Below the pieces are notes generated by a model. It worked only from the letters and a program-made list of their open reading frames with translations. It made no database searches and was not told the origin of the DNA. A DNA stretch of 64,000 nt from the sequence record OR770614.1; one strand, 5' to 3'. Of the stretch, positions 9,255 through 63,300 are shown one piece after another. The position numbers and the translations under genes are program-made. Every line of letters begins with the position of its first letter. The first letter of the stretch is position 1. This DNA comes from Staphylococcus phage vB_StaM_PB50.

Positions 9255-9432
9255 ATCCGATTCACTCTCCTAGTGTAATTTTTATGAAATACTATTAGCT
9301 AATTAGTACTTCATTTTTATAATATATATTTAAAAATTGATATAAAACGGTAATATAAAATTCATGTAGTTTAAAATATTATGGTAACATATTATTATAA
9401 TAATACAAATAAAACTATCTAGAAAGAAGGTC

Positions 9433-13026: not shown

Positions 13027-13129
13027 TGTTCCTAATGAGATTCGAACTCATAACCTACAGATCCATAAATTATCCTATCCAGGTATAATTCATAAAATCC
13101 GTACACTCTGACCATTGAGCTATAGGAAC
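13027..13129 (-). tRNA. tRNA-Lys(TTT)-like gene with a 31-nt insertion in the anticodon loop (possible intron-containing tRNA or pseudogene)
   Basis: Clean acceptor stem (GTTCCTA/TAGGAAC), D-arm (GCTC-AATGGTCA-GAGT), anticodon stem (TACGG/CTGTA), T-arm (ATGAG-TTCGAAT-CTCAT). The anticodon loop region is 38 nt, not 7 nt. Confidence 0.55.
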
Positions 13130-13136
13130 ATAGAAA

Positions 13137-13208
13137 CTGCTCTAGTTTGATTCGAACAAACAACCTCTTGATTAACAGTCAAGCATTCTACCATTGAATT
13201 ATAGAGCA
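13137..13208 (-). tRNA. tRNA-Asn (anticodon GTT)
   Basis: Canonical cloverleaf: acceptor TGCTCTA/TAGAGCA, D-arm ATTC-AATGGTA-GAAT, anticodon arm CTTGA-CTGTTAA-TCAAG, T-arm GTTTG-TTCGAAT-CAAAC. Confidence 0.8.
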
Positions 13209-13560
13209 TTAATAAAAAAAAATAAAAGAGTACATTTATCATCTATGCACTCTTTTAAGTAAATAAATATATAATAATATCTATTCATTTTTAATTATAC
13301 GTAAGGAGGCGTATGGATTTCTATTTAAAACCATGACATATTAAAAATAGAAACAAGAAATCAAAGGAACATTTTTAAAGCAACAACAAATGACAAAGTA
13401 AGTTATAATAGAATTTAATCTATTATATTTTTTAGTTAAATCAAAAACTAAAAAAAAAAATCTATAATAATTTGACGAGGATCATTATAGATTTATACTA
13501 TATAGTTAATTAATATTTTTAAATAAAATTTTTTAATAAATAGGAATTTTAGACCAAAAA

Positions 13561-13630
13561 AAGCTTATCCGAGGGATCGAACCCCGGACACATGATGAAA
13601 ATCATTGCTCTACCAACTGAGCTAGATAAA
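13561..13630 (-). tRNA. tRNA-like gene with non-canonical anticodon arm (5-bp stem ATGAT/ATCAT closing a 4-nt loop TTTC); isotype unresolved, possible pseudogene
   Basis: Classic D-arm TAGCTCAGTTGGTAGAGC, T-arm CGGGG-TTCGATC-CCTCG and 7-bp acceptor stem. Total 70 nt, 3 nt short in the anticodon loop. Confidence 0.5.
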
Positions 13631-13678
13631 CTTTCTTCATTATTATAATATATGTTTATATTTCACTATATTACGCTT

Positions 13679-46606: not shown

Positions 46607-47352
46607 CAATTGTATAAAGATTAGACTATATCTTTTAAATTCAAATATATTTCCATTTAAAATTTTTGTAAGTTTTACTATTTCTATAACCATTTGCAAC
46701 TGCTTGTATTCCTTTTCTATCTATATTTAATTCTTCCGCTGCAAATTTAGCACTTTCATATTCTTTTATAATTTTATCTGTTTCTTTATCTATTTGTGCC
46801 ACTGGTTTTCTTCTCTTTTTTAATGATTCTTCCATTTTATCAGTTTTATGAAGATTATTTTCTATAGCATGTAAATTATTTTCTAATACTGACATCCATT
46901 CTAAATTAGATAAATTATTATTTAATTTATTACCGTCAATATGATTAACTACATTTTTATCAATATCTTTATTTTCGATAAAATTCTCTGCAACTAAACG
47001 GTGTATTCTTCTTGTATGCTTCTTATTATTTTTATATAATTGAACATCTTCATAACCATTTTTATTTATTCTTGTCTTTAATACTCTTTCTTTAATAAGC
47101 ATTCTTTTATCTTTACCTTTTAAAGAATCATTATATACATATCTTGAAACCGATTTAACTTTACCAGTATTGGATATTTTATAGTAATTTTCAAAATCTT
47201 TAATGTCTTTCCATATTTCTTTCATTATTTTCCTCCTTTTATAAAGGAAGTATATTTGAATTATATTATTATATTTAGTCGTTGAACACTAAATTAGTGA
47301 TGCTGATTATTTTTAAACTTTTCAGCAATTAATAATTTTTTAATTGAGCTAC
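46607..47352 (-). mobile_element. intron-like element of the same core family carrying an HNH homing endonuclease ORF
   Basis: 5' part has core TTAATTGCTGAAAAG..TAATCAGCATCA..GTTCAACGACTAAATA followed by SD and HNH ORF. 3' part has GATATAGTCTAATC. Interrupts the polymerase just after Exo I. Confidence 0.6.
46641..47225 (-). CDS. HNH homing endonuclease (NUMOD4-like N-terminus plus HNH_3)
   Basis: WKDIKDFENYYKISNTGKV; HRLVAENFI...NHIDGNKLNNNLSNLEW HNH motif; strong SD AAAGGAGG. Confidence 0.8.
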   Translation of the reverse strand: MKEIWKDIKDFENYYKISNTGKVKSVSRYVYNDSLKGKDKRMLIKERVLKTRINKNGYEDVQLYKNNKKHTRRIHRLVAENFIENKDIDKNVVNHIDGNKLNNNLSNLEWMSVLENNLHAIENNLHKTDKMEESLKKRRKPVAQIDKETDKIIKEYESAKFAAEELNIDRKGIQAVANGYRNSKTYKNFKWKYI

Positions 47353-48434: not shown

Positions 48435-51170
48435 TTAATTTAATTTAAATAACACATTCTTACCTTGCATTATTTCTTCATCATTAATATCAATCTTACT
48501 TTCATATCCTTTAAGTAAAATTAAATCAATATCAGAACTATAAAATTCATCATTATGACTAATTAAGAATACTTGTTCTAATCCCATTAATTCAATTTGT
48601 TTATCTATAACATCAACAAATCTTCTACGATTATTAGAGTCTAATGTTGCGTCCATCTCATCTAGGTAAAGAATATTATAATCTTGTGATACTTTATTTA
48701 ATAATGATAATGATAAACTAATATTAGTTAAAGCTGTTTCACCTTGAGAAGCTTCTTTAATGTCTTGTAATTCAGTTCCATTACCTTTATAAACATTAAT
48801 AAAGAAATCCTTGTCAGTTAAATCAAAATCAATCTTGAATGAATTATTATAAGCTACTGAAAGAAGTTCATTAGTACTTACTGCAATATCTTTAAGGTAA
48901 TTAGTAATGAATATTAATGGTATAGAATCTTTTTTAGGGTTTAATGAATCGACTACTAATGAATATTTCCATAAAACTTTCTCAATATCATCAATCTTAT
49001 TAATAATCGTATTTACTGTAAAGTATTTTTCTTTAGTAGATTCTAATTCATTTTTCTTCATAGTTAAATTATCTTTAATAGAATTAATCTTATTATCTGA
49101 TTGTTGATTAAGTTCATATAATCTACTTAATTTATTTAAATCTTTATCAACTTCATCAATCTTATATTGTTTATCTTTAATGTTAGATTTAATTTCATCA
49201 GACTTCTCTGTTAAATTAATAAATTCATTAATAATGTCTAAAGTATTTTGTCCTTTATCTTTCTTTGCATTAAGTTCATTAAGATTCTCTAAGATATTAT
49301 CTTTATTACTTTTAACTTCTTCAATCTGCTTTTCTAATTCAGCTTTATCTTCATTATATTGATTCATTAATTTTTGATTAGAATGATCTTCTTTAAACGC
49401 ATATCTTTTTCTTTCTAATTCTTTAGATAATTCATCTCTATTGCGTTCAGATGTTCTAATTTCATTAACATTATCTGATAATGATTTCAAGCTATTTTCT
49501 TCATTAGTAAATGAGCTATTATTAATAAATATTTCTTTAATATTATCCATAGTAATAATATCAAAACCTAAATATTCGTTTAATGAATCGACATCTTCTT
49601 TAATATAATTAAATTGATTTAATATATCGATATGATTAGAAAGAAGTTCATTATCATTTTCTAACTGATTATTTTCTTCATAAAGTTCATTAACTCTAGT
49701 TTCCAATTTATCAATTGAATCATATTCATTATCTTTAAAATCAACTACTAAAGGTACAAACACACATTCTTTATAATGTTCATGATCTTTTTGTTCTAAT
49801 ATTTTAAGTAAATCTGATTTACCTTTAATTTGATTAAGACTTGTATTAAGTTCATTAGCTTCATTTAGGTTCATAGAAATTTTTTCTTTATTAGATTTAA
49901 TTTCAGTTTCAAAATCTCCATGAATATCATTATATTTAAATTTATTATCATTAACTAGACTCTTGAATTTATTAACTTTATTTAATAGATTATCTATATA
50001 TAAATTAAGCGTATTAACTTCAATGTCGTCTTTAATTTTAATATTAAAGTTATTGAAATAAGATCCTCTAGCAGCATCTATATCATTATCCAAATCAGTT
50101 AGATCATCTTTATATGATTGAAGAATTTCATCAATTTCCTGTGAAGCGTCATAATCTTCATTGAACTTAATAGCATTCATTCTAGATTCAATTTTAGATT
50201 TTCTACTAATTAAATCATCTAATTTATCTTGATTAGATTCTTTATCTTTTTTAGTTGATGTTAAATTTGTATGAACTTCATTAAGTATAGAAGATACTTT
50301 TTCTTTCTTTTCATTAGCAGATTCTAATGTATAATTATTTAAATTTTCATTAGATTCTTTTAACTTTCTTTCTTTTTCTAATTCAATTTCAAGTTCATGA
50401 AGTTCATTACTTAAATTTTCTTTTAATTGAGTTGGATGAATTTCATTATACTTTTCTTCCATAATAGAATTTAATTTAGTTTCATTAGAAGTCTTTTCTT
50501 TATTAGCATTATCTAATTCATCCTGAATTTCATTAATTAGATTTTCTAGTACTTCTTTTTCTTTCTTAATTTCATCAAATTCTTTATATTTATCTAAATC
50601 AAATCTTAATGATTTAAGATCTTTATCAATAAGTCTTTTCTTTTCATTAGCTACTTTATAAGCTTCTAAATATTTATCAATATTAGGTACAAATTTATTA
50701 ATATATGTCTTACGATCACCAGTAGTATAATCAATAAAGTTAGAAACATTATCTCCTAATCTACCTACAGTGAAATATTCTTGAGATACGTCTAATTCTT
50801 TATCAACTATTTCATTAAATAACTTAATACCACCATTCTCATTTAGCTCTTCACCATTCTTTTTAATAAATGATTTATTTTGAGAACTGTTTTTTCCATA
50901 ATGATGTTTAATCTCATATATGTCACTATTTTTAATATAATCGATTTCTTTAATTCCTTTTTCATCTTCAATAATATGATTTTTTCTTACATCATTAGAA
51001 CCTCTGTATGGACTTAATTGAGATATAATCGCTGATTTTCCAGATCCATTATCTCCAAGAAGCATTATCATATTATTTTTACTTTTACTGAAGTCTATTT
51101 CAATTTCTTTTAATCCTGTTCCAGCATATATACCTATAAAATTCTTTAACTTTAATCTTTTAATTTTCAT
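48435..51170 (-). CDS. SbcC/Rad50-like SMC-family ATPase with long coiled coil
   Basis: Walker A LLGDNGSGKSAI at the N-terminus, ~650-aa coiled coil, signature and Walker B ILYLDEMDATLD at the C-terminus. No Mre11/SbcD partner in window. Confidence 0.75.
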   Translation of the reverse strand: MKIKRLKLKNFIGIYAGTGLKEIEIDFSKSKNNMIMLLGDNGSGKSAIISQLSPYRGSNDVRKNHIIEDEKGIKEIDYIKNSDIYEIKHHYGKNSSQNKSFIKKNGEELNENGGIKLFNEIVDKELDVSQEYFTVGRLGDNVSNFIDYTTGDRKTYINKFVPNIDKYLEAYKVANEKKRLIDKDLKSLRFDLDKYKEFDEIKKEKEVLENLINEIQDELDNANKEKTSNETKLNSIMEEKYNEIHPTQLKENLSNELHELEIELEKERKLKESNENLNNYTLESANEKKEKVSSILNEVHTNLTSTKKDKESNQDKLDDLISRKSKIESRMNAIKFNEDYDASQEIDEILQSYKDDLTDLDNDIDAARGSYFNNFNIKIKDDIEVNTLNLYIDNLLNKVNKFKSLVNDNKFKYNDIHGDFETEIKSNKEKISMNLNEANELNTSLNQIKGKSDLLKILEQKDHEHYKECVFVPLVVDFKDNEYDSIDKLETRVNELYEENNQLENDNELLSNHIDILNQFNYIKEDVDSLNEYLGFDIITMDNIKEIFINNSSFTNEENSLKSLSDNVNEIRTSERNRDELSKELERKRYAFKEDHSNQKLMNQYNEDKAELEKQIEEVKSNKDNILENLNELNAKKDKGQNTLDIINEFINLTEKSDEIKSNIKDKQYKIDEVDKDLNKLSRLYELNQQSDNKINSIKDNLTMKKNELESTKEKYFTVNTIINKIDDIEKVLWKYSLVVDSLNPKKDSIPLIFITNYLKDIAVSTNELLSVAYNNSFKIDFDLTDKDFFINVYKGNGTELQDIKEASQGETALTNISLSLSLLNKVSQDYNILYLDEMDATLDSNNRRRFVDVIDKQIELMGLEQVFLISHNDEFYSSDIDLILLKGYESKIDINDEEIMQGKNVLFKLN

Positions 51171-51227: not shown

Positions 51228-52088
51228 TTATTTAAAATTATCCCTTACTTTATATTTAGCTATAATCTTTTCATCATTAATTTTCTCAAATGTATCTGTT
51301 TCATCTATATAACTGAATAATTCTATATATTCATCTTTAATATCTTCTTCTTTTATTTTTAAATCTTCTTTGCTAAATTCTAAAAAATATTTTTCATTTA
51401 AATAAAAATTTATATTAAGATGGTTAGTTATTTTATTCAATAATATTAGTATTTCACTATTTATATTTAGAAGAACTTTATACATCATATGATGACCTAG
51501 ATTTTTTTTCTTTAAAGCATTATATAATTGAATTGGATCTTCTTCAGGTATAAATTTATTTATTTCAAATACCAATGTATTATTTTCTCCTTTAAACTCA
51601 AATACATTTCCACATATTTTATTAAATAATTTTTTGTCTAATTCAGTTCCAAGATTTGAAATATTCAATTCTAAACTAAGATCAATACCATTTTTAAGTA
51701 CATAAATATCATTATCGTCTTTATCTTTATATTTACCTTTTTCATGAAATTTAACATCTGAATTTAAATTTATACTAAAATTATTTAATATTTTTGAATT
51801 GTCTATACTATAAGATAAAAAAGGTAGAAATGACATCATATCTAGATTAACTCCTTTAATATGTCTTGGTTCCTCTTTAAAAATATTAAAAAGCATAAAA
51901 GGGGATTTATCAGGGTTTCTATTTTCTTTATTTGAGAATTGTAAATTTGATAATATATGACTTAAAGTATTAATTTCTGGAGTTATAAAATTCTTTATAC
52001 CTATATCCGATAAATCTTCAATTTCATTTTCAACTGTGTACATTTTGTCTTCTAATTTATATAGATAATAATCTTTATTTTTATCCAA
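51228..52088 (-). CDS. tandem paralog family member 1 (C-terminal tail FEKINDEKIIAKYKVRDNFK)
   Basis: Conserved C-terminal tail shared by 13 genes in 51.2-62.4 kb. Confidence 0.6.
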   Translation of the reverse strand: MDKNKDYYLYKLEDKMYTVENEIEDLSDIGIKNFITPEINTLSHILSNLQFSNKENRNPDKSPFMLFNIFKEEPRHIKGVNLDMMSFLPFLSYSIDNSKILNNFSINLNSDVKFHEKGKYKDKDDNDIYVLKNGIDLSLELNISNLGTELDKKLFNKICGNVFEFKGENNTLVFEINKFIPEEDPIQLYNALKKKNLGHHMMYKVLLNINSEILILLNKITNHLNINFYLNEKYFLEFSKEDLKIKEEDIKDEYIELFSYIDETDTFEKINDEKIIAKYKVRDNFK

Positions 52089-52102
52089 CGAAAAATCCTC
52101 CT

Positions 52103-52834
52103 TTATTTAAAATTTTCTCTTACTAAATACTTCTCAATAGTTTCTTTATCAGTTATTTCCTTAAATATTCTACCAGAATCAAAATTTTTAAGAAATTCAA
52201 TTTCTTTATTATCGAATTTACTATAGTCTTCTAAATTTTTAGTTCCAATTATAGATGCAAAAGAAACTTCTTTTATTAAGAATTCTAAATCAAAATGTTT
52301 AGACATTGCATGTAAAACATTGATAATTGCACCATTCATATCAGATAAAGTAAACACCATATCATTATTATTTTTAAGATTTTCATTTTCAAGATCTGAA
52401 ATGAAAATATCATAATCACTTATTACCGGTAAATACTCCATTTTTATTGAATTATTTTTGTCTAAGATATCTCCAGATACAGATCTAAAGAATGGATTAT
52501 AAACAGTAGGATAAACTCCAGTATTAAATACTAAAGTTAAGTAGCTGGTATCATTTTTATTTATTTCAAATCTTCCAGCAATATCGATATAATCAATTGA
52601 TTCTTCATTTTTACTTTTTATTGAATAATATAATCTAGGAAATATATTATGAAAATCTATAGTACAAGATTTTTTATCTTTTTCATAGCTGGACCATTCA
52701 TAGGAATCAGTTTTAACTTGTAAACTAGCAAGCAAATAATTGAAAAATATTTCATTATTTGTTTGCTCTGAATTTATATTATCTATTTCAATTAATCTTT
52801 CACTTAGTTTTGTTACAAAATATTTTTTACCCAT
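52103..52834 (-). CDS. tandem paralog family member 2
   Basis: N-terminal KKYFVTKLSERLIEID; C-terminal FKEITDKETIEKYLVRENFK. Confidence 0.6.
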   Translation of the reverse strand: MGKKYFVTKLSERLIEIDNINSEQTNNEIFFNYLLASLQVKTDSYEWSSYEKDKKSCTIDFHNIFPRLYYSIKSKNEESIDYIDIAGRFEINKNDTSYLTLVFNTGVYPTVYNPFFRSVSGDILDKNNSIKMEYLPVISDYDIFISDLENENLKNNNDMVFTLSDMNGAIINVLHAMSKHFDLEFLIKEVSFASIIGTKNLEDYSKFDNKEIEFLKNFDSGRIFKEITDKETIEKYLVRENFK

Positions 52835-52850
52835 ATTAAATTTCTCCTTT

Positions 52851-53633
52851 TTATTTAAAATTATTTTTCACTAAATATTTTTTAATAATCTTTTCATCTT
52901 TAATCTCTTCAAATACTCCAGATATTTTATACTCGTCAAATAAATTATAGTATTCATCATCTATATCAACATTATCTCTTTTATCATTCTCTGGTATGTG
53001 CGAGAAACAACCATCTGATACAAAAAATTCTATATCAAAATGATCTCTAATTTGTGATAAAATTTCCAATATAGAACTATTTACTTCAACTAATATTTGG
53101 TATAAATCTTTATTATTTCTAAAATTATTCTCTGTACCACTATTAAAATCTGATATTAAATCTTCCATGCTATTTATATGAAATCTAAAAGGCACTTTTA
53201 AAGAATTGGATTCATCTAATATATTGCCAATAACGCTATTAAAAATTATTGAATTTATACCTGAAGAGTATGGATTTTCAATTCTAACTTTTAAATAGTT
53301 CTTATTTTCTATTGATTCGTTGAAAATAATATCAAAATCAATAATAAGTATATTCGTTGTCTTTTTATTATTAACATTATATTTGATAACTGGAAAAATA
53401 TATCCAGCCGATATAATCCCTGACCATAAATTCTCTCCATTATCATCTTTATCAACAATCTCTTCAGAAGATATAGTTATTTCTTCATTACTTTTTACTT
53501 GTAAATTAGAAAGTAATTGAGGTAGATATAAATAATCTTCACTTATATTATATTTGTATAAATTAGTAACTTCAAATAAATCATCTGTCATTTTACTTAA
53601 AAAATATTTTTTATGACTTTTATTTATACTCAT
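52851..53633 (-). CDS. tandem paralog family member 3
   Basis: N-terminal KKYFLSKMTDDLFEV; C-terminal FEEIKDEKIIKKYLVKNNFK. Confidence 0.6.
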   Translation of the reverse strand: MSINKSHKKYFLSKMTDDLFEVTNLYKYNISEDYLYLPQLLSNLQVKSNEEITISSEEIVDKDDNGENLWSGIISAGYIFPVIKYNVNNKKTTNILIIDFDIIFNESIENKNYLKVRIENPYSSGINSIIFNSVIGNILDESNSLKVPFRFHINSMEDLISDFNSGTENNFRNNKDLYQILVEVNSSILEILSQIRDHFDIEFFVSDGCFSHIPENDKRDNVDIDDEYYNLFDEYKISGVFEEIKDEKIIKKYLVKNNFK

Positions 53634-54490
53634 TATGAAAATCCTTTCTTGACTTTAAAATTTTTAATATCTTTTTCATCTGTTAATTCTTTAAATAAAT
53701 CATTTTCATCACTTTCTATTAGATGTAATAAATTAATTAAACTGCCACCCTTACTGGAGAAACTAATATAAAATTCTATATCATCTTTATACATATATTT
53801 AATCTCATAAAGAGACATTAATACACTAAGATTATTCTGATATAATATTATAAAGAATAAATCCTTAAAATCTTCTATAAATTTAATAATAGGATTTTTC
53901 TCAAATGCCGATATTGAAAAACTTAAATCCATAAATGATTCATTATTATATTTGATCTCGTATAAACTCTTTTCAAATAATTCAATATTTACAAGAGATC
54001 TCATTTTTTCATTTATTCCTTCATTAACTAAATTATTTTCATTTACTAAACCATTAGTAATTGTATTGAAATATTCTTTATATAATGAATTATCAAAATG
54101 AAAATCTAATTTAAATTCTCCAGTTTCAATTTTATCCATTCTACCAGTATTGAAATTAATATGAAAATTAGTATTAAATCTTTTAAAAGCATCATTTTTA
54201 TTATGTTTGTCTATAAAATAAATATCATTATCAATTTCTTTATAATGAAAATTCATATAATCTTCTTCTTTAGAAATATTATTTATGAAAGATTTAGCGT
54301 ATCCTTTACTACTTAAAATATTATTAATATCCATAGTGGTTAATACATATGCAATATATTCATATCGGTTAAGATAATTTCTATCAATTTCAATTAATTC
54401 ATCTCTTTCTTTATCTATAAAATATTTTGTATTATTTTTCATATTAGGAAAATCCTTTCTTGACTTTAAATTTTTTAATCTCTTTCTCAT
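53633..54490 (-). CDS. tandem paralog family member 4 (true start probably the internal Met near 54442)
   Basis: NTKYFIDKERDELIEID; C-terminal FKELTDEKDIKNFKVKKGFS. The first 16 codons overlap the upstream gene in another frame. Confidence 0.55.
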   Translation of the reverse strand: MRKRLKNLKSRKDFPNMKNNTKYFIDKERDELIEIDRNYLNRYEYIAYVLTTMDINNILSSKGYAKSFINNISKEEDYMNFHYKEIDNDIYFIDKHNKNDAFKRFNTNFHINFNTGRMDKIETGEFKLDFHFDNSLYKEYFNTITNGLVNENNLVNEGINEKMRSLVNIELFEKSLYEIKYNNESFMDLSFSISAFEKNPIIKFIEDFKDLFFIILYQNNLSVLMSLYEIKYMYKDDIEFYISFSSKGGSLINLLHLIESDENDLFKELTDEKDIKNFKVKKGFS

Positions 54491-55223
54491 CAGTTATTTC
54501 TCTAAAATATGCATCAGCGTCAAAATCATTTAAACTGATATACTTATCATATTCTTTTTCAAAACTAAAACCTTTTTCTTTTACCTTTTCCTTAACGCTA
54601 AAATCCCAATCCGGTGCAATAAGAAATTCAATATCTGAATGGTCTTGTATCTGATCTAGTAATTCAAAGATTAATTTATTTGTATCATTAAATATTTTAT
54701 ATAAATCATCTTTGAGTTCTACAGCTCTTTTTCCTTTTTGTATATGACTTTTATAATATTTTAAAAATCGAGATATAATTTCTTCATTAAAGCTATGATG
54801 TAAATATAGTTCGCCATCATCATCAAATATACCAGATCTTTTACTAAATAATCTTTTACCTATCTTACTATTATTATATACAGGGAAAGCTCTAATCTTA
54901 ATATAGTTATCGTCTTCTTCTTTTAAACTAAAACGTATTGTAGCGTAAAAGAGAAGTTCCATTTTATTTTTTTTACCCTTATATTTATATTTTACGGTAG
55001 GGAAAGCATCAAAAAATAATCTAACACCAAATAAGCCATCATTATCATCATATTCTTCATGAGTTATGAAAAATCTTTCATTATACTTTAACTGCATTTC
55101 AGCGAATAATTTGCTTAAAACTTTCCATTTAAAGTCAAAATAGTTTGTTTCATTTTCATTGAAACTTAATTCCATAAATTCTTCTCTCAATTTACTAATA
55201 TAATATTTATTAATTTTCTCCAT
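54444..55223 (-). CDS. tandem paralog family member 5
   Basis: KYYISKLREEFMEL; C-terminal FREITDEKEIKKFKVKKGFS. Confidence 0.6.
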   Translation of the reverse strand: MEKINKYYISKLREEFMELSFNENETNYFDFKWKVLSKLFAEMQLKYNERFFITHEEYDDNDGLFGVRLFFDAFPTVKYKYKGKKNKMELLFYATIRFSLKEEDDNYIKIRAFPVYNNSKIGKRLFSKRSGIFDDDGELYLHHSFNEEIISRFLKYYKSHIQKGKRAVELKDDLYKIFNDTNKLIFELLDQIQDHSDIEFLIAPDWDFSVKEKVKEKGFSFEKEYDKYISLNDFDADAYFREITDEKEIKKFKVKKGFS

Positions 55224-55249
55224 TTATTTAACTCCTTTTATTATAATAA

Positions 55250-55280
55250 TCCCAATACCTAAATTAATGGGTATTGGGAT
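55250..55280. terminator. terminator hairpin TCCCAATACCT-AAATTAAT-GGGTATTGGGA (conserved family)
   Basis: Inverted repeat with one mismatch. Confidence 0.6.
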
Positions 55281-55305
55281 AACATTTTTATAATATATAT
55301 TTATT

Positions 55306-55707
55306 CTAATCTTCAGAATTGAGTGACACTTGAACATTTTCCATTTCTTCACGTTGTTCTTTAAGTCTATCAAGAACTTCTTTTTCTTCTTTATTTTGAG
55401 TTAATTCTGGTTCAATTAATAATTCTTTTTCTTTCATGTCTTCTAATATACTTAAACCTTTTTGAACCTCTGGCGATTCATTAGAAGGATTAAATCTATT
55501 ATGTTTATTATCATAATAATTTAATTTAACTAGATCTGAATTAGTTTCAATAACCACTTCAGCTTCTATGAATAAAATATCATTCGGATCAGTTACACGT
55601 TTTCTATATATTAAAGCTTTAGTATAAGAATCCTTTTTAAAACCATAATCTCTTAATAGCTGTTTAATATTTTCTTTATTACTATTTAATCTATATTCTG
55701 ATAACAT
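55306..55707 (-). CDS. hypothetical acidic protein
   Basis: ORF inside the paralog array; not a family member. Confidence 0.45.
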   Translation of the reverse strand: MLSEYRLNSNKENIKQLLRDYGFKKDSYTKALIYRKRVTDPNDILFIEAEVVIETNSDLVKLNYYDNKHNRFNPSNESPEVQKGLSILEDMKEKELLIEPELTQNKEEKEVLDRLKEQREEMENVQVSLNSED

Positions 55708-55869
55708 TATAAATCACTCCTTAATTATTTTTACTAAATTCATGAACTTCATTAAGATGCTCATGATCTTGGTAGCTAAATTTAAACTCGTATAGTTTCT
55801 TTTCAAATCTTTTTCTAGTTAATAATTCGTATAATCTTTTTAACATATCTAATACATCTCCTTATTAAT

Positions 55870-56280
55870 TTAAAATGAAGCATCTATTACTAAATAAAAA
55901 TTATGCTTATTGCTTTCTAAATAGTATCTATTTTGAAATATTTCTAACATTAATTTGTAGTATTTTGTTAGATCATTATCAAAATTATCTTCTTTTAATT
56001 CTTTTTTCATTAATTCTTTTAAATTTGATTCTGAAATTACTTGAACATCATAACCTTCATCATCTTTAAAAATAGTTGAATTTTCACTTAAAACTTTAAA
56101 TAATTCATGTGGTTTATATAATTCTAATTCAAATAAGTGATTTTTCTTATTTATATATCTTTTATTTTTAATATACCAATCTAAATTTCTTTGATGACTT
56201 TTATTTATTCCATATATACTAAGTTCCATACCCATAAATAATACATCTCCTATATAATAAATACCCATAATATATTGCAT
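55870..56280 (-). CDS. hypothetical protein
   Basis: ORF. Confidence 0.4.
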   Translation of the reverse strand: MQYIMGIYYIGDVLFMGMELSIYGINKSHQRNLDWYIKNKRYINKKNHLFELELYKPHELFKVLSENSTIFKDDEGYDVQVISESNLKELMKKELKEDNFDNDLTKYYKLMLEIFQNRYYLESNKHNFYLVIDASF

Positions 56281-56303
56281 TAATATATTATGGGCAAAAT
56301 AAT

Positions 56304-57089
56304 CTAAAATTCTGCTTTTTGATAAATATTTCCAAATTCATCTTTAACTATTTCATCATTACCTTCAATATCTTCAAAGATAAGATCTCTAGTCATAGTA
56401 AATAATTCTGGATATTCATCTTCAAGCTCATCTTCTTCAATGATATTCATTTCATTATCAGCAATTACTAGTTCATATTCATTTGGAGTATCACCTAATA
56501 CAAAGAATTGCAATGTGCCTTTATATACTTTTAAAATAGAAGCTAAGTCTTGATATTTAAGTTCATTGACCTCTTTTTGTAATTCCTCTCTTTTTTCAAT
56601 TTCTTTTTCATCTTCATCTATATCTTTATTTAGATTTTCTAAAGTTTGATCTAATTTATCTTTCAAATCTTCTTCATCTTCAGCAGTATCTTCTTCATTT
56701 TCTGTCATGCTGTTTAATATATCTTTATTAGACATATTATTAAGCTGACTAAGTACATTTTTAGCAAGCACTTTATAGTTATCTTCAGATTCATCATCTT
56801 CAGCCATTTTCTGAGCTTTCATAGTTAAGTCAATAATATCTTTTTTAACATTTTTCATTTGCATAATAGTGTCTTTAATTTCTTTTTCTACACTAATAAT
56901 ATTAGCTTCCATATTAGATACAAATGTATGTTTAGGATATTTCAGATTCTTAGTTAAATCTCTAATTCTTTCTTCTAATTGAATTTCTTTACGTTCCATT
57001 TTAGATTTAAAACCAACTAGCATTTTATATTCTTCCATCATATCATTAATTTGTGAAATTAAATCAATTCCGTTATTTTCATTAGACAT
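56304..57089 (-). CDS. acidic coiled-coil protein
   Basis: E/D/K-rich ORF. Confidence 0.45.
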   Translation of the reverse strand: MSNENNGIDLISQINDMMEEYKMLVGFKSKMERKEIQLEERIRDLTKNLKYPKHTFVSNMEANIISVEKEIKDTIMQMKNVKKDIIDLTMKAQKMAEDDESEDNYKVLAKNVLSQLNNMSNKDILNSMTENEEDTAEDEEDLKDKLDQTLENLNKDIDEDEKEIEKREELQKEVNELKYQDLASILKVYKGTLQFFVLGDTPNEYELVIADNEMNIIEEDELEDEYPELFTMTRDLIFEDIEGNDEIVKDEFGNIYQKAEF

Positions 57090-57135
57090 TTAGTTAATCA
57101 CTTCTTTCATATATTATAAAAGTAAGTTAATTAAA

Positions 57136-57822
57136 TTACCTAAAGTTTTTATTTACTAAATAGTTTTTAATTTCTTTCTCATCTTTAATTTCAATAAATT
57201 TCTTACTGAAATTTAATATATTATAATCTTCTAATGTACCATCTTTATACTTCGAGAAATTTTCTAGTTTTATTTTATTCTTATTTTCTTCAAATTCTTC
57301 TATAATTTCTTCATTAATTACATAAAAATCAATATCATCATTTTCAATTTCTTTTAATACCGCTTCAAACATTTCACTAAAGAAAATCTGATCTTCTTCT
57401 TTATAATCATATTCAAATTTAGGATAATTTTCATATTTAAATAATTTCCGGTTATAAAATAAGTTTCTTACTTTTGTGAAATTTCCAACACTTTCAAATT
57501 TATTAAGAGTTGCAGCTGTAGGTGTAAGTTTAATATTAATTATAGCTTCATGATTAAGCTTCAACCGAATAGTCAATTCTATGTGTTTTATTCTATACAT
57601 AATGTTATTGTGATTAATTACAATGAAACTTCCAGTCATTCCTTGATGTCTCAATATATAGTCGTCTTTTGTATATTTTTCATGCTTCACTAAGTATAGA
57701 TTATCATCCACATAGTTAATAAATGAAAAAGATCTAATATATTTTTCTATACCATCTTTTGCTTCTATATATTTTCCATTATCTATATTTTTGTATAATT
57801 TAAAATCAATCATATTATTCAA
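57136..57822 (-). CDS. tandem paralog family member 6
   Basis: C-terminal FIEIKDEKEIKNYLVNKNFR. Confidence 0.6.
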   Translation of the reverse strand: MNNMIDFKLYKNIDNGKYIEAKDGIEKYIRSFSFINYVDDNLYLVKHEKYTKDDYILRHQGMTGSFIVINHNNIMYRIKHIELTIRLKLNHEAIINIKLTPTAATLNKFESVGNFTKVRNLFYNRKLFKYENYPKFEYDYKEEDQIFFSEMFEAVLKEIENDDIDFYVINEEIIEEFEENKNKIKLENFSKYKDGTLEDYNILNFSKKFIEIKDEKEIKNYLVNKNFR

Positions 57823-58450
57823 AACCTTTCTTGACTAAGTAATTTTTAATTTCCTTTTCATCCGTTACTTCTTTAAATAGTTCATCTATAATATTTAAAT
57901 TATAGATTTCTTTTATATCCTCTTTACTTATTTTGTAATCATGAATATTGTCTTCGTTATTTAATGAAAAGACATTAAATGCAGAACCATTTTTATTAAA
58001 TATATCTCTAGTCAAGTATTCTTTAGCTCTGTCTAGTAAAGTTTTTCCTTCAGTATATATTTCTGTATCATTAAAATAAAATTCAATTTCACCTTCTCTA
58101 GATACAAAAGGTCCTATTTCACAGTGAACTTCTTTTTTTGAAAACGCTGGAATATCTAATACAAAACTAAATTCATATTGACCATCATTTTTATCTACGA
58201 AAAGATCAAATTCATTTACATAAAAAAGATTATTCATATCATAACCGAATCTTAGAATTAGACCATCCATAGAATTTATCCAAAGACGAACATTTTTAAC
58301 ATCATAACCAGTACAGCCTGGATGTTTGAAAAATTGATCAAAAGATATATCAAATAATTCTTTTCTAGAAAGACTCTTTTTATCAATGAAACTATATTCT
58401 AAAATATCAGATACATATAATGATTCATTCATTTTAATTACCTCTTTCAT
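57815..58450 (-). CDS. tandem paralog family member 7
   Basis: C-terminal FKEVTDEKEIKNYLVKKGFE. Confidence 0.6.
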   Translation of the reverse strand: MKEVIKMNESLYVSDILEYSFIDKKSLSRKELFDISFDQFFKHPGCTGYDVKNVRLWINSMDGLILRFGYDMNNLFYVNEFDLFVDKNDGQYEFSFVLDIPAFSKKEVHCEIGPFVSREGEIEFYFNDTEIYTEGKTLLDRAKEYLTRDIFNKNGSAFNVFSLNNEDNIHDYKISKEDIKEIYNLNIIDELFKEVTDEKEIKNYLVKKGFE

Positions 58451-59064
58451 TATTTAAAATTTTTTTCTACTAAATATTTTTTAATTTCTTTTTCATCTTC
58501 TAGTTTTCTAAAATATACATGAGGTTCAAATATATCAATACCATTTATAAAGATTTTAGTATTTCCATCAACATTTTCTTCTTTAAGCATTTTGTCCAAC
58601 AAATTAGACAATGTATCTAAATTATTTTCGTATTGATTATAACCCATAAGATCTTTTTCATAAAAATCTTTTACCATTGTTATAGCAAGACTATTTGAAA
58701 TAGTATCATCTTCTAAAAATTGTATCTGAGTATCTCTATTAATATAGGTTTCTAATTGTAATGTTACTTCATTATCTTTAATTTTTACATATGAAAATTC
58801 TAAGGCTTCTACTGGAAGATTCTTTCTAATCCCATTATATATATTACTGTAATATATATTTTCACTATCAATTAAATCAAAACGTAAATTTCTATTATAA
58901 TAAAGATCATCATTTAAACTAGGGTAATAATCTAAATTTCTTTCCATTAACTTTTTATAATAGAATTTATTTATTTTATCATTAATATCATTTTCATCTT
59001 TACCAATTATAAAAAGCTCATTAATATCCTTATTGTAATAAAATTCATTCTCTTTTAAAATCAT
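58450..59064 (-). CDS. tandem paralog family member 8
   Basis: C-terminal FRKLEDEKEIKKYLVEKNFK. Confidence 0.6.
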   Translation of the reverse strand: MILKENEFYYNKDINELFIIGKDENDINDKINKFYYKKLMERNLDYYPSLNDDLYYNRNLRFDLIDSENIYYSNIYNGIRKNLPVEALEFSYVKIKDNEVTLQLETYINRDTQIQFLEDDTISNSLAITMVKDFYEKDLMGYNQYENNLDTLSNLLDKMLKEENVDGNTKIFINGIDIFEPHVYFRKLEDEKEIKKYLVEKNFK

Positions 59065-59156
59065 ATCTTTTCCACTCTCCTAATTAAATTAATATAGAGA
59101 TAATGAATCATATTAATTCATTATCTCATTTTTATAATATATATTTAACACATATT

Positions 59157-59834
59157 TCATCTAAATCCTTCTTTAACTAAATAATTCTTGAATTCTTTAT
59201 CAGTAGCAACTCTAAATAAGTTTTCATTGTGTAAATTGATATCTTTTAAACTATAATATTTTCCATCAATTAAAAACTGTATATCTTCATATTTATTTAA
59301 TTCAGTTATTATTTTTAAAAATTCTTTTTTAAACTTTTCAATTGATAAGTGAAATTTAGGACACCTTTTACCATCAAAATCTGATAAGCTTACTAATTCT
59401 TTTGTTTTAACCTTAAGTGTATTCTTTTTGTTATTCATACCTAAATTTTTTCTTTTCATCATATTAAATTCATATAGTATTTCATCTTCTAAATAACTAT
59501 TATCTTTCTCTTTAGATATAATTTTTAATTCAGTAGAAGTAAATGATAAACCGGCAAAATTAGTTGTATGGTCATTCATATTCTGATAATAACTTATTTT
59601 AATATCTTTATAATCATTAAAACCTCTTAGTTTTAATTTACAATCAATTTTAAATGATATTATATTTTCAAAATCAGGATTAGCATTATTCGTTAATAAT
59701 CTCATCATGTTAACAACATTTACTTTCTCAATATATTCTCTATCATTATTATATTTATCTTTATCTATTCTCGTAAAATAATTATTTTCTATATCTTTGG
59801 TCGCTTTATATAGATCAAAATCATAATTTTCCAT
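59157..59834 (-). CDS. tandem paralog family member 9
   Basis: C-terminal RVATDKEFKNYLVKEGFR. Confidence 0.55.
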   Translation of the reverse strand: MENYDFDLYKATKDIENNYFTRIDKDKYNNDREYIEKVNVVNMMRLLTNNANPDFENIISFKIDCKLKLRGFNDYKDIKISYYQNMNDHTTNFAGLSFTSTELKIISKEKDNSYLEDEILYEFNMMKRKNLGMNNKKNTLKVKTKELVSLSDFDGKRCPKFHLSIEKFKKEFLKIITELNKYEDIQFLIDGKYYSLKDINLHNENLFRVATDKEFKNYLVKEGFR

Positions 59835-59836
59835 TA

Positions 59837-60022
59837 TTATTCTTCTCCTTTTAAGATTCTTTCCATTTCTTCTTTAGAAACTTTCTCTCCTATAATTGGA
59901 CCTTTTATTTTTTTCTTGTCTTTATTTTTCTCTCTGTATAATTCTGCATCAATTTCCCATTTTTCTTGTAAAGTCAATTGTTTACTTTCATTTTTTCTAA
60001 TTTCTTTTCTCATATTTATCAA
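59837..60022 (-). CDS. small K/E-rich hypothetical protein
   Basis: 61-aa ORF. Confidence 0.35.
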   Translation of the reverse strand: MINMRKEIRKNESKQLTLQEKWEIDAELYREKNKDKKKIKGPIIGEKVSKEEMERILKGEE

Positions 60023-60027
60023 TCCCC

Positions 60028-60519
60028 TTATCTAAAATGATTTCTAATTTTAAAATCTTTTACTTCTTTACAATCTTCTGAGATTATTTCAAATATATCT
60101 TCATTATCAAAATTGAATTTTTCTAATGGAATATTATAATGTGCCATATTTATATCTATCGCATAACATAATCTTTTATAAAATAAATAATAAAGATCAA
60201 TTGAAGAGTCTGATATGACAAGATTTTGGTTTGTTAAATCTATATTTTTAGGTATAAAAGGAATACTATTAAGATCCCAAGAAATGTTTGTAGTTAAATG
60301 AAGATTAATAAAACCGTAAAGTAAGAAAAACTCCAATTTTATAATTCCTACGTCTTCATCATATAAATCAATCTTTTTACCATAAGATCTATAAAAAGAC
60401 GAATTCTCTTTTTTAAATTTATTTCCAAATACATAATAAAATGCATCATCTTTTCTATGAATATCATTAACTTCATATATTTCGCCATTTACTTTATTTT
60501 CGTAATATATCATATCCAC
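60028..60519 (-). CDS. tandem paralog family member 10 (near-duplicate of 61247..61729)
   Basis: MIYYENKVNGEIYEVNDIHRKDDAFYYVFGNKFKK; C-terminal EDCKEVKDFKIRNHFR. Confidence 0.6.
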   Translation of the reverse strand: MDMIYYENKVNGEIYEVNDIHRKDDAFYYVFGNKFKKENSSFYRSYGKKIDLYDEDVGIIKLEFFLLYGFINLHLTTNISWDLNSIPFIPKNIDLTNQNLVISDSSIDLYYLFYKRLCYAIDINMAHYNIPLEKFNFDNEDIFEIISEDCKEVKDFKIRNHFR

Positions 60520-60529
60520 TTACACTTCC

Positions 60530-61231
60530 TTATTTAAATTCTTCTTTAATTAAGTAATTTTTAATTTCTTCCTCATCAGTAATTTCTTCAGCAATAAATT
60601 CCAAATTCCATCTTAGATAATCCATAAAATACATATACGAATTGTCGATCTTAATTCTAAGGTCCTTTAATATATAATATATCAATTCATCTAGAGAATC
60701 ATAAACGTCATTATTCTTATCAGACAAATAATCTTGTTTGAAACTAACTTTAAAATGTACTTCATTTTTATCCATTGTACAAGAAGATATTTTATATTTA
60801 TCACTTTTATATTTATCTAGCATACGAATTATTTTCTTAGCCTTTTTTGTATTTAAAACAATTTGAAATATATTTTCATAAATTCCATCATTATCTGTAT
60901 TAGAATCAGAGAAACAAACAATTGAAGATGAAATATTTCTTTCTTTATTTTCATTACTCTTAATTATTATATCTTCGTCTACTCCAATTAAATTTTTAAA
61001 ATTTATAATAATATCTGAATGTGTATAAAAATGAAAATTCAGTTGTTTATTAATTAAATAAGAGTTTCCATTGGTTGTAACGGGTTGGTCTTCATAATTA
61101 TAATATGGGTAAAAATTACTTTTTATCTGTTTCATGACTTTATAAAGAAATCTACCATTATTAATTTCATCTTTAGATAAAATAAATTTATTACCATTTT
61201 CTAGATTTTTATACAATTTAATATTTTCCAT
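60530..61231 (-). CDS. tandem paralog family member 11
   Basis: C-terminal IAEEITDEEEIKNYLIKEEFK. Confidence 0.6.
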   Translation of the reverse strand: MENIKLYKNLENGNKFILSKDEINNGRFLYKVMKQIKSNFYPYYNYEDQPVTTNGNSYLINKQLNFHFYTHSDIIINFKNLIGVDEDIIIKSNENKERNISSSIVCFSDSNTDNDGIYENIFQIVLNTKKAKKIIRMLDKYKSDKYKISSCTMDKNEVHFKVSFKQDYLSDKNNDVYDSLDELIYYILKDLRIKIDNSYMYFMDYLRWNLEFIAEEITDEEEIKNYLIKEEFK

Positions 61232-61246
61232 TTAAAATTTCTCCTT

Positions 61247-61729
61247 TTATTTAAAAAGATTTCTAATTTTAAAATCTTTTACTTCTTTACAATCTTCTGA
61301 TAATATTTTAAATATGTCTTCATTATCAAAATTAAATTCTTTTAATAATATATTATAATTTAATAAAGGTATATCTATTGCATTACACATTCTTTTATAT
61401 AATATATAGTAAAGATCTTCTGAAGAATCAGATGAGACAAGATTTTGATTCTTTAAATCTACTAATTTAGGTGCAAAAGGATTATTATTATCATATTTCA
61501 TATGTGTAACTAAAAATAATCTAGATGAGTCATAATTTAATTGGAAGTTTAATTCTTTATGTCCTTTATCTTTATCAAATAAATCAATTTTTTTACCCAC
61601 TGATTCATATAATTCCATTCTTTCTTTTTTAAATTCATTACCAAACACATAACAAAAAGCATCATCTTTTCTATGAATATCATTAACTTCGTATATTTCA
61701 CCATTTACTTTATTTTTGTAATATATCAT
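61247..61729 (-). CDS. tandem paralog family member 12 (near-duplicate of 60028..60519)
   Basis: MIYYKNKVNGEIYEVNDIHRKDDAFCYVFGNEFKK; C-terminal EDCKEVKDFKIRNLFK. Confidence 0.6.
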   Translation of the reverse strand: MIYYKNKVNGEIYEVNDIHRKDDAFCYVFGNEFKKERMELYESVGKKIDLFDKDKGHKELNFQLNYDSSRLFLVTHMKYDNNNPFAPKLVDLKNQNLVSSDSSEDLYYILYKRMCNAIDIPLLNYNILLKEFNFDNEDIFKILSEDCKEVKDFKIRNLFK

Positions 61730-61746
61730 TATCTATTTCAACTCCA

Positions 61747-62367
61747 TTATTTAAAATTTTCTTTAATTAAATATTTCTTAATCTTATCAATATCTTTTTC
61801 TTCATTATTTTCTAATTCATTTATATTCCTACCATTTAATAACAAATCATAACCTTTATCATTAAATTTTCTTTCTAAATCGTATAAGTATCTAATTACA
61901 ATATCAGAATATTTTAAATGAAAATCATTTTTATCATAATTAAAAATAGAAATTGTTACATTATTGATTTCTTTATCATCTACTATTAAATTTATATAAT
62001 CAACATCTGATATAAGTTTTTTATATCTATCACTTTCTATTTGTTTTTCTTCATTATCATAAAACAATCTTATGCCACTTGTATATTCATTTAACTCATT
62101 TTCTTGTTTTTCAGAAAAAATATCTATTGACAAACTAAATTGAAATTTTATATTTTCACATATCAATTCAAGATTATCAAGAGAAATATTTATATCTAAT
62201 CTCTCTAGACCTAAATTTAGAAAATTATCTTCCTTGATACGATCTACATCAATATGCAACATTCCTATCAAGTCTGTAATATTTCCTTTAATTTTATCTT
62301 TATAGATTTGCATTAATCTATCATCCATTTTAAAATACCTATAATCATTAATATTCAAAATAATCAC
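61747..62367 (-). CDS. tandem paralog family member 13
   Basis: C-terminal EKDIDKIKKYLIKENFK. Confidence 0.55.
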   Translation of the reverse strand: MIILNINDYRYFKMDDRLMQIYKDKIKGNITDLIGMLHIDVDRIKEDNFLNLGLERLDINISLDNLELICENIKFQFSLSIDIFSEKQENELNEYTSGIRLFYDNEEKQIESDRYKKLISDVDYINLIVDDKEINNVTISIFNYDKNDFHLKYSDIVIRYLYDLERKFNDKGYDLLLNGRNINELENNEEKDIDKIKKYLIKENFK

Positions 62368-63129: not shown

Positions 63130-63300
63130 GAAATTTTCGCATTTATTATATTTATATAAGTATTATATAAATTAGACTATATTATATACTATTAAATAGT
63201 ATCATTGCATTTAGTCGTTGAACAATTATATTTAATTGATGCTGATTAACTTTATTAATAGTATTTCAGCAATTAACAATATTTATCAACTTAAATCACT
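63130..63300 (-). mobile_element. intron-like element (core family) in the beta-prime N gene, copy A
   Basis: Core TTAATTGCTGAAATAC..TTAATCAGCATCAAT..TTGTTCAACGACTAAATG..AATATAGTCTAAT between SRYPINKMVAA (NRAPTLHRLGI) and the next exon. Confidence 0.55.

Follow-up and report, generated by a model that had tools for sequence, protein, structure and literature searches.

The window analyzed here is a 64,000-nucleotide stretch of Staphylococcus phage vB_StaM_PB50 (sequence record OR770614.1), which is a Staphylococcus jumbo phage of the AR9/PBS1-like S6/MarsHill/Machias clade. Between positions 51228 and 62367, the window contains 13 minus-strand genes encoding proteins of 160–286 amino acids, all of which end in variants of a single 20-residue tail, F-x-E-I-T-D-E-K-E-I-K-x-Y-L-V-K-x-N-F-K. 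A first-pass annotation, made from the DNA letters alone, had pointed out this array as a set of divergent paralogs with a common C-terminal tail, and the observation was borne out by a profile search. A hidden Markov model (HMM) of the last 34 alignment columns was compared with the 343 six-frame open reading frames (ORFs) of the window, which recovered the 13 members with E-values of 1e-15 to 3e-8; the next best ORF scored 0.23, and no further tail-bearing ORF was found in the 64 kb. This separation is far beyond chance. The members, numbered by ascending coordinate, are as follows.

51228–52088, minus strand: m01, 286 amino acids, tail ...FEKINDEKIIAKYKVRDNFK; final array gene before the SbcC-like gene; its ortholog in phage Machias is CPT_Machias_134 (91% identity)
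52103–52834, minus strand: m02, 243 amino acids, tail FKEITDKETIEKYLVRENFK; body homologous to m03
52851–53633, minus strand: m03, 260 amino acids, tail FEEIKDEKIIKKYLVKNNFK; modelled with AlphaFold2
53633–54442, minus strand: m04, 269 amino acids from the ATG at 54442, tail FKELTDEKDIKNFKVKKGFS; the ORF reaches up to 54490, and the representative protein P0005 begins MKNNTKYF
54444–55223, minus strand: m05, 259 amino acids, tail FREITDEKEIKKFKVKKGFS; first gene downstream of the putative early promoter P3
57136–57822, minus strand: m06, 228 amino acids as listed, the ATG start probably lying at about 57813, tail FIEIKDEKEIKNYLVNKNFR
57815–58450, minus strand: m07, 211 amino acids, tail FKEVTDEKEIKNYLVKKGFE
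58450–59064, minus strand: m08, 204 amino acids, tail FRKLEDEKEIKKYLVEKNFK; first gene downstream of the putative early promoter P2
59157–59834, minus strand: m09, 225 amino acids, tail FRVATDKEFKNYLVKEGFR; the sole basic member, with an isoelectric point of 8.5
60028–60519, minus strand: m10, 163 amino acids, tail ...EDCKEVKDFKIRNHFR; paralog of m12
60530–61231, minus strand: m11, 233 amino acids, tail IAEEITDEEEIKNYLIKEEFK
61247–61729, minus strand: m12, 160 amino acids, tail ...EDCKEVKDFKIRNLFK; the second AlphaFold2 model
61747–62367, minus strand: m13, which opens the array; 206 amino acids counted from a GTG, although translation probably begins at the TTG at 62358; tail ...EEKDIDKIKKYLIKENFK; the representative protein P0012 begins MNIDDYRYF

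Apart from m09, the members are acidic (isoelectric points of 4.6–6.3 in 12 of 13), and reading by eye, without a predictor, revealed no hydrophobic segment resembling a membrane span or signal peptide. The genes m10 and m12 had initially been taken for recent near-duplicates. Their bodies are only 65% identical, and both copies are present in 5 of 8 related phages; the duplication is therefore older than the divergence of those relatives.

The same tail was found in a family-wide set of 106 members from nine genomes, 99 of which are unique. Among these 99, tail columns carry 2–3.7 bits of information, and the Phe at position −2, counted back from the C terminus, is invariant (99/99). A weaker patch of conservation lies near the N terminus (h-Y-Y/F-x-x-K...[DG]-E-L-x-E(-h), 1.5–2.7 bits), in which the Y/F column is kept in 91 of the 99 unique members. 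The first-pass annotation had noted this motif in many of the genes; it is real and partial, as a regular expression written post hoc matched 7 of the 13 window members, belonging to 5 otherwise unlinked groups and at the same position in each, against 1 of 46 other ORFs. Outside these ends, the proteins have diverged to the degree that had been suspected. Once 24 residues are cut from each C terminus, the 106 members fall into 22 ortholog-like clusters and these into about 14 groups that BLAST and hhalign do not link; within the window, BLAST connects m01, m02, m03, and m05 with each other, and m10 with m12. Leave-one-group-out HMMs, built on the whole body, on positions −85 to −22, or on the N-terminal 45 residues, did not place held-out groups above decoy ORFs. 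Weaker conservation was also seen in a helix and a "D-I-E-F" strand preceding the tail, yet the module of helix, D-I-E-F strand, and loop that is apparent by eye found no statistical support in these HMMs. A single common scaffold for the bodies is nevertheless suggested by the N-terminal motif, the similar sizes, the tandem arrangement, and the order of secondary structure elements in two structure models.

These two models were made with AlphaFold2. The model of m03 is an alpha/beta protein with a mean predicted local distance difference test score (pLDDT) of 79 and a predicted template modelling score of 0.82, in which the tail forms a strand (residues 241–244) and a helix (residues 247–258). 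The model of m12, based on 27 sequences, is poor overall (pLDDT 53) and confident only in the N-terminal hairpin (pLDDT 70–74) and the tail (pLDDT 79–88). Across both, the tail is ordered, with pLDDT values of 73–89, and both share one order of elements: an N-terminal hairpin, a beta-rich middle, a long helix, a strand, and a terminal helix. The tail is thus modelled as a beta-strand (F-x-E-I) followed by an alpha-helix (T-D-E-K-E-I-K-x-Y-L-V-K-x-N/G-F-K). The helix looks as if it is capped at both ends and strongly stabilized: T-D-E-K-E reads as an N-terminal capping box (T/S-x-x-E) and makes the first turn acidic, basic residues occupy the last turn, and a Gly or Asn would serve as C-cap, after which the invariant Phe would fold back. 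Hydrophobic residues are conserved at I(−11), Y/F(−8), V/I(−6), and F(−2), and position −7 alternates between Leu and Lys.

Comparison of orthologs showed that the proportion of synonymous differences (pS) is equal in tails and bodies (0.227 and 0.232, respectively). Among the 13 paralogs, the tail has a pS of 0.58 and a proportion of nonsynonymous differences (pN) of 0.31, and all four Val codons are in use for its conserved Val. The tail is therefore constrained as a peptide: its conservation acts at the protein level and not on the DNA. Between orthologs, pN/pS is 0.36 for the tails, 0.53 for the bodies, and 0.21–0.27 for neighboring genes (the SbcC-like gene, the AR9 g142 homolog, and the small genes that interrupt the array, all described below), so that the bodies evolve about twice as fast as the genes around them.

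The expression of the array was approached through its promoters. In Bacillus phage AR9, the early promoter of the injected virion RNA polymerase (RNAP) is AAATATATATTAT-N6-G(+1), and this motif was shown experimentally to drive transcription within 5 minutes and independently of protein synthesis (PMC5312081). The 64-kb window matches AAATATATATTAT-N6-G exactly at 6 sites, each of them on the minus strand; with at most one mismatch, the number of sites rises to 9, where shuffled sequences led to an expectation of 1.1 at that setting. Three of the 6 exact motifs precede m13, m08, and m05.

62413–62394, minus strand: putative early promoter P1, exact AAATATATATTAT-N6-G, 27 nucleotides upstream of m13
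59146–59127, minus strand: putative early promoter P2, exact AAATATATATTAT-N6-G; the hairpin 59127–59097 starts at the predicted +1
55302–55283, minus strand: putative early promoter P3, exact AAATATATATTAT-N6-G; the hairpin 55280–55249 comes next

Exact copies occur at these three positions in all 8 relatives and in an uncultured contig from the Logan collection. The presence of exact, conserved AR9-type promoters before three blocks of genes suggests that the array is transcribed early, as three units that the virion RNAP would read. The other exact motifs lie outside the array, on the minus strand at 9331–9312, 12458–12439, and 36075–36056. The hairpins next to P2 and P3 (12–14 base pairs, minus strand) start at, or within 3 nucleotides of, the predicted +1 G; they may be a terminator of the upstream unit, a protective 5′ stem-loop of the new transcript, or both, and the equivalent of 55280–55249 is annotated as a terminator in Machias. 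A scan for sigma-70 promoters was uninformative in DNA of 22% GC (147 sites, with 162 expected).

Over its alignable part, the window shares 94% identity with phage Machias; identity is 80–86% to DC4, S6, PALS_2, MarsHill, Madawaska, LY01, and SA1. For the AR9/PBS1-like phages of this clade, two multisubunit RNAPs have been described, and uracil-containing DNA has been reported or proposed (bioRxiv 10.1101/2020.12.14.422802; PMC10303552). All 8 relatives carry the array at one locus, between the gene for the N-terminal part of virion RNAP beta′ and the SbcC-like ATPase gene, with 7 members in LY01, 8 in SA1, 12 in Machias and PALS_2, 13 in S6, Madawaska, and the present window, and 14 in DC4 and MarsHill. 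The same arrangement was found in the Logan contig, a 27-kb uncultured sequence from a public sequencing run. The borders of the array and the tail-less genes that interrupt it are listed below; these number four, one more than the first-pass annotation had counted.

62476–62446, minus strand: intrinsic-terminator-like hairpin at the end of the virion RNAP beta′ gene, shortly upstream of P1
59837–60022, minus strand: small interrupting gene, 61 amino acids, rich in lysine and glutamate; present in 6 of 9 genomes, the window included
56304–57089, minus strand: acidic interrupting gene, 261 amino acids, AR9 g142 homolog; pN/pS 0.26
55870–56280, minus strand: interrupting ORF, 136 amino acids as listed; its start is uncertain, and the hairpin 56296–56262 overlaps its 5′ end
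55306–55707, minus strand: interrupting gene, 133 amino acids, kept in all relatives; pN/pS 0.21
48435–51170, minus strand: SbcC-like ATPase, 911 amino acids, the conserved downstream border; AR9 g139 homolog

The identification of the downstream border as SbcC-like held, with a tblastn E-value of 4e-53 to AR9 g139 and Pfam matches below cut-off. Three relatives, Machias, MarsHill, and Madawaska, have this protein annotated as a "virion associated protein". That label looks doubtful, as the gene immediately follows a putative early transcription unit and the protein was not detected in SA1 virions (see below). At the upstream border, a terminator is annotated at the matching intergenic position in MarsHill and Madawaska, and none is annotated there in Machias. 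The gene at 56304–57089 matches AR9 g142 (BLASTP E 3e-5 over 209 amino acids) and LPJP1_00169 of Listeria phage LPJP1, and g142-type genes occupy the same place between virion RNAP beta′ and SbcC in Bacillus, Listeria, and Staphylococcus phages. As AR9 and LPJP1 have kept the flanking genes and the g142 homolog, and no tail-bearing gene was found in either, 56304–57089 appears to be a conserved backbone gene around which the family expanded, in the Staphylococcus clade only.

Three further elements lie upstream of the array, at 63290–63160, 62974–62800, and 62715–62518 on the minus strand. These conserved, structured elements of 95–120 nucleotides interrupt or follow coding segments of the beta′ N-terminal gene, whose homolog in Machias is annotated as three exons. 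They match the group I intron model below threshold (E 2.6e-6, 7e-5, and 4e-3; 22–33 bits, with a gathering score of 50), are unusually small (about 175–200 nucleotides), are similar to one another, and contain no ORF for an endonuclease. A gene for an HNH/NUMOD homing endonuclease (NUMOD4 E 4e-15, HNH_3 E 8e-9) is located at 46641–47225, immediately downstream of the SbcC-like region; it is of the type commonly found among mobile elements that disrupt gene order in these phages. More distantly, three tRNA genes are clustered at 13027–13631 on the minus strand, one with an extended match of 103 nucleotides; in papers on relatives, a single tRNA is reported for DC4.

Searches beyond the clade gave no sign of a wider family. 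A profile search of 1.84 billion representative proteins yielded at least 17 clusters, every one with the tail, of which 16 map to array genes and one is a new body type on a short contig; this number is a lower bound, since the search missed true groups such as m10/m12. No sign of members outside the array locus was seen among these representative proteins, the complete genomes of the relatives not having been scanned. A tblastn search of the tail against 50,697 phage records matched solely 9 Staphylococcus jumbo phages, and of about 300 pattern matches from two degenerate tail-pattern scans of IMG/VR, none was confirmed. A word-indexed homolog search, in which AT-rich, low-complexity words dominated the candidates, returned only 2 proteins with a full alignment and no match with the tail alignment. 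In Pfam-A, PHROGs v4, and NCBIfam, no member scored above a curated cut-off (best E about 0.01); sequence and fold searches of the PDB gave no match for the family, nor did the tail profile match PDB sequences. Membership of a well-characterized structural family, which would have made the tail a trivial conserved strand, was looked for and not found. The relatives' GenBank records annotate the array genes as hypothetical, and the genome papers of the clade that were searched, a scope that did not include the PALS2 paper, contain no mention that we found. The family is thus undescribed and clade-restricted, and it sits at a fixed locus.

Within that locus, gene content is fluid. The 22 ortholog clusters vary in presence and absence between close relatives, and array maps differ by whole genes. 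Of 103 homology breakpoints between genomes, which are not independent as the relatives share history, 84 fall in gene-junction windows that make up about 25% of the sequence, and 11 fall in gene bodies, which make up 63%. The genes therefore behave as cassettes that are gained, lost, and replaced whole. Recombination may be aided by the conserved termini; alternatively, exchanges of whole genes may simply be the only ones to survive selection. The tails of m04 and m05 are 89% identical in nucleotides, in which gene conversion is inseparable from allelic divergence of the m04 ortholog group.

Taken together, we propose that the array is a tandemly duplicated, fast-evolving multigene family specific to the S6/MarsHill/Machias Staphylococcus jumbo phages, encoding soluble, mostly acidic proteins of the cytoplasm. 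The injected virion RNAP would transcribe it from three early promoters at the start of infection. Each protein would consist of a constant frame, made up of the N-terminal beta-hairpin motif and the C-terminal strand and helix, around a variable middle of 100–200 residues. The constant terminal module may form a docking or assembly surface for one shared partner, the variable middles may give each paralog a specificity of its own, and whole genes would be swapped, gained, and lost at the junctions. The array would then be a library of early host-interaction proteins for takeover or anti-defence, and we give this proposal about an even chance of being right. That the genes are in fact expressed early, that the tail serves in docking, and that the proteins act on the host are all inferred. 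The earlier suggestion of a library of effectors such as anti-defence proteins agrees with it as far as the promoters, the cassette-like turnover, and the high pN/pS go; the role itself is inferred.

Several points weigh against the proposal. Common descent outside the tail is not statistically demonstrable across the roughly 14 groups by these sequence comparisons. The early timing rests on a promoter consensus from a Bacillus relative, AR9, and a transcriptome for any Staphylococcus jumbo phage was not found in the literature. With a pN/pS of 0.53, the bodies may be under relaxed constraint instead of being driven by an arms race. The virion proteomes of SA1 and DC4, discussed below, are incomplete, and in SA1 virions the SbcC-like protein (ORF192) was not detected either, despite its "virion associated" label. 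Finally, the tail is modelled as ordered and might be no more than that part of the fold which is conserved best.

This last point is the main rival of the docking-module explanation. According to it, the tail is only structural: the C-terminal strand and helix and the N-terminal hairpin would be the folding core of one fast-diverging fold, without a shared partner or tag function, and the paralogs may still be early accessory proteins. The ordered strand and helix in both models, the conserved residues that read as helix-stabilizing, and the weaker conservation in the preceding helix and D-I-E-F strand are all in line with such a core. However, conservation is packed into the 20 terminal residues rather than scattered over core positions, and the tail keeps its information content while the bodies have diverged beyond recognition. 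Several conserved positions are moreover charged and likely exposed (D−15, K−13, and K−10), and the toggle between Leu and Lys at −7 is unlike a buried core residue. We regard a purely structural tail as a tentative alternative that deserves to be kept in mind.

Other C-terminal sorting signals, for instance a timed degron of the ClpXP/ClpCP type or an amphipathic membrane-targeting helix, are improbable readings of the tail. The C-terminal helix is rich in lysine and contains hydrophobic residues, early proteins often need to be cleared later, and the maximum helical hydrophobic moment of 0.43 is near that of the MinD targeting helix of B. subtilis (0.40). The value is well below the 0.78 of the FtsA helix, however, and the hydrophobic residues do not lie on one face. 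The tail is also modelled as ordered and joined through a beta-strand, and its endings (N-F-K, G-F-S, or N-F-R) are by inspection unlike the ...LAA of ssrA-type tags. By the same inspection, ssrA-like ...LAA, the beta-clamp motif QL[SD]LF, and the SSB motif DDDIPF are absent from the 13 tails.

More unlikely still is that the tail acts as a capsid-targeting, packaging, or ejection signal, or as a prohead-protease site, on proteins carried in the virion and injected. The array does adjoin the gene annotated in relatives as a virion associated protein and a virion RNAP subunit gene, and paralogous internal proteins are found in the heads of the giant phages phiKZ and 201phi2-1. These inner-body proteins and the internal proteins of T4 resemble the array members in being paralogs of large phages with a short terminal signal. 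However, they are products of late genes, are abundant in the virion, and carry N-terminal signals or protease sites, the capsid-targeting sequences of T4 being N-terminal and cleaved. The array, in contrast, has putative early promoters and a C-terminal element that is modelled as folded, which speaks against late expression and against an N-terminal signal removed by a prohead protease, and AR9, LPJP1, and PBS1 share the virion architecture but do not contain the family. Among the 52 proteins of CsCl-purified SA1 virions, no mass-spectrometry evidence was found for the 8 members encoded by the array ORFs 179–191 (PMC9096886 Table S2), and the 14 members encoded by DC4 loci 00025–00042 are absent from the 15 virion proteins of that phage (PMC10638138). 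The exact early promoters before the three blocks and this non-detection in virions thus make a packaging or ejection signal, the first possibility named in the first-pass annotation, unlikely; a shared proteolytic signal, also named there, is without support, as the tail is modelled as an ordered strand and helix.

Least plausible of all is conservation at the nucleic acid level, by which the 3′ ends would be kept for a signal that serves the next gene (ribosome-binding site, promoter, recombination site, or terminator) and the peptide would follow passively. In its favor, the genes are closely packed, breakpoints concentrate at their junctions, and in m04, m05, and m07 the K-K-G-F variant (AAG AAA GGA/GGT), 8–11 nucleotides before the next start, doubles as a Shine-Dalgarno-like site for the abutting gene, but in most other visible cases (for example after m02, m03, m10, and m12) such a site lies past the stop codon, the tails of m01 and m09 are equally conserved with a long intergenic region behind them, and the synonymous-site data, with paralogs near saturation and every Val, Thr, Glu, and Lys codon in use, largely refute a DNA-level cause as the main one.

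Returning to a library of early proteins with a docking module, a more specific version is that the tail and N-terminal hairpin form a modular docking tag into one shared host or phage machine, with the middles as interchangeable specificity modules. We consider this speculative and somewhat doubtful. To our knowledge, a modular docking tag of such a kind has not been described for phage proteins. One analogy is with the ankyrin/PRANC host-range families of poxviruses and comparable adaptor families in large eukaryotic viruses, in which variable bodies that select the target are likewise combined with a short conserved C-terminal (F-box-like) element through which every paralog docks on a single partner, and in which copy number differs from strain to strain. 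They have no sequence or fold relation to the array, as Pfam and fold searches were negative, and bacteria lack SCF (Skp1-cullin-F-box) complexes, so that this remains an analogy only. Early accessory modules are also known from phages, such as the host-takeover module of SPO1 and the Tre genes that Staphylococcus Kayvirus carries in its terminal repeats. Like the array, these are clusters of small to medium early genes that are variable, without assigned function, and dispensable for virion structure. They are mixtures of unrelated genes behind host sigma-A promoters, whereas the array is a single tail-marked family with virion RNAP-type promoters.

As a lineage-specific paralog expansion in a jumbo phage, the array is a kind of thing already known. 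Arrays of more than 30 similar genes have been noted in jumbo phages (cited in a 2026 review, PMC13282480), and Bacillus phage G contains about 35 zinc-ribbon copies (PMC7824862). Such expansions share with the array a tandem duplication in one lineage, the lack of outside homologs, and a conserved surrounding gene order. The array differs from them in that its copies have diverged save for the 20-residue tail and the short N-terminal motif, and in its three early promoters and lack of a recognizable domain.

In a sharper version of the proposal, at least one member may act as the anti-repair factor that these uracil-DNA phages seem to lack, perhaps as an inhibitor of Ung or a DNA mimic; no Ung inhibitor or anti-repair factor has been recognized in the Staphylococcus jumbo clade (PMC10303552). 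Like the array members, the Ung inhibitors Ugi, SAUGI, and p56 are early, acidic, beta-sheet-containing proteins of the same phage super-group (PMC10303552). They are single-copy proteins of less than 120 amino acids with a defined Ung-binding strand, whereas the array is multi-copy, with proteins of 160–286 amino acids and without a fold match. Neither a PDB fold match nor a sequence match to Ugi, SAUGI, or p56 was found for any member.

About 80% of the genes of Staphylococcus jumbo phages, which are under investigation for therapy, have no assigned function. The array, about 10 kb long, probably belongs to the first genes to be expressed. Because it varies between phages that are nearly identical elsewhere, it stands out as a candidate determinant of host range or of resistance to defence systems. 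The shared tail offers an experimental handle, since a single peptide might serve as bait for a partner common to 7–14 proteins. If the tail only serves as a structural core, the family would still be a clear example from nature of proteins that have diverged to an extreme around a fixed frame. If it is a docking tag, the array would be a clear phage example of a multigene family built on a constant adaptor plus variable specificity, and the bacterial-virus counterpart of the ANK/PRANC adaptor families of poxviruses.

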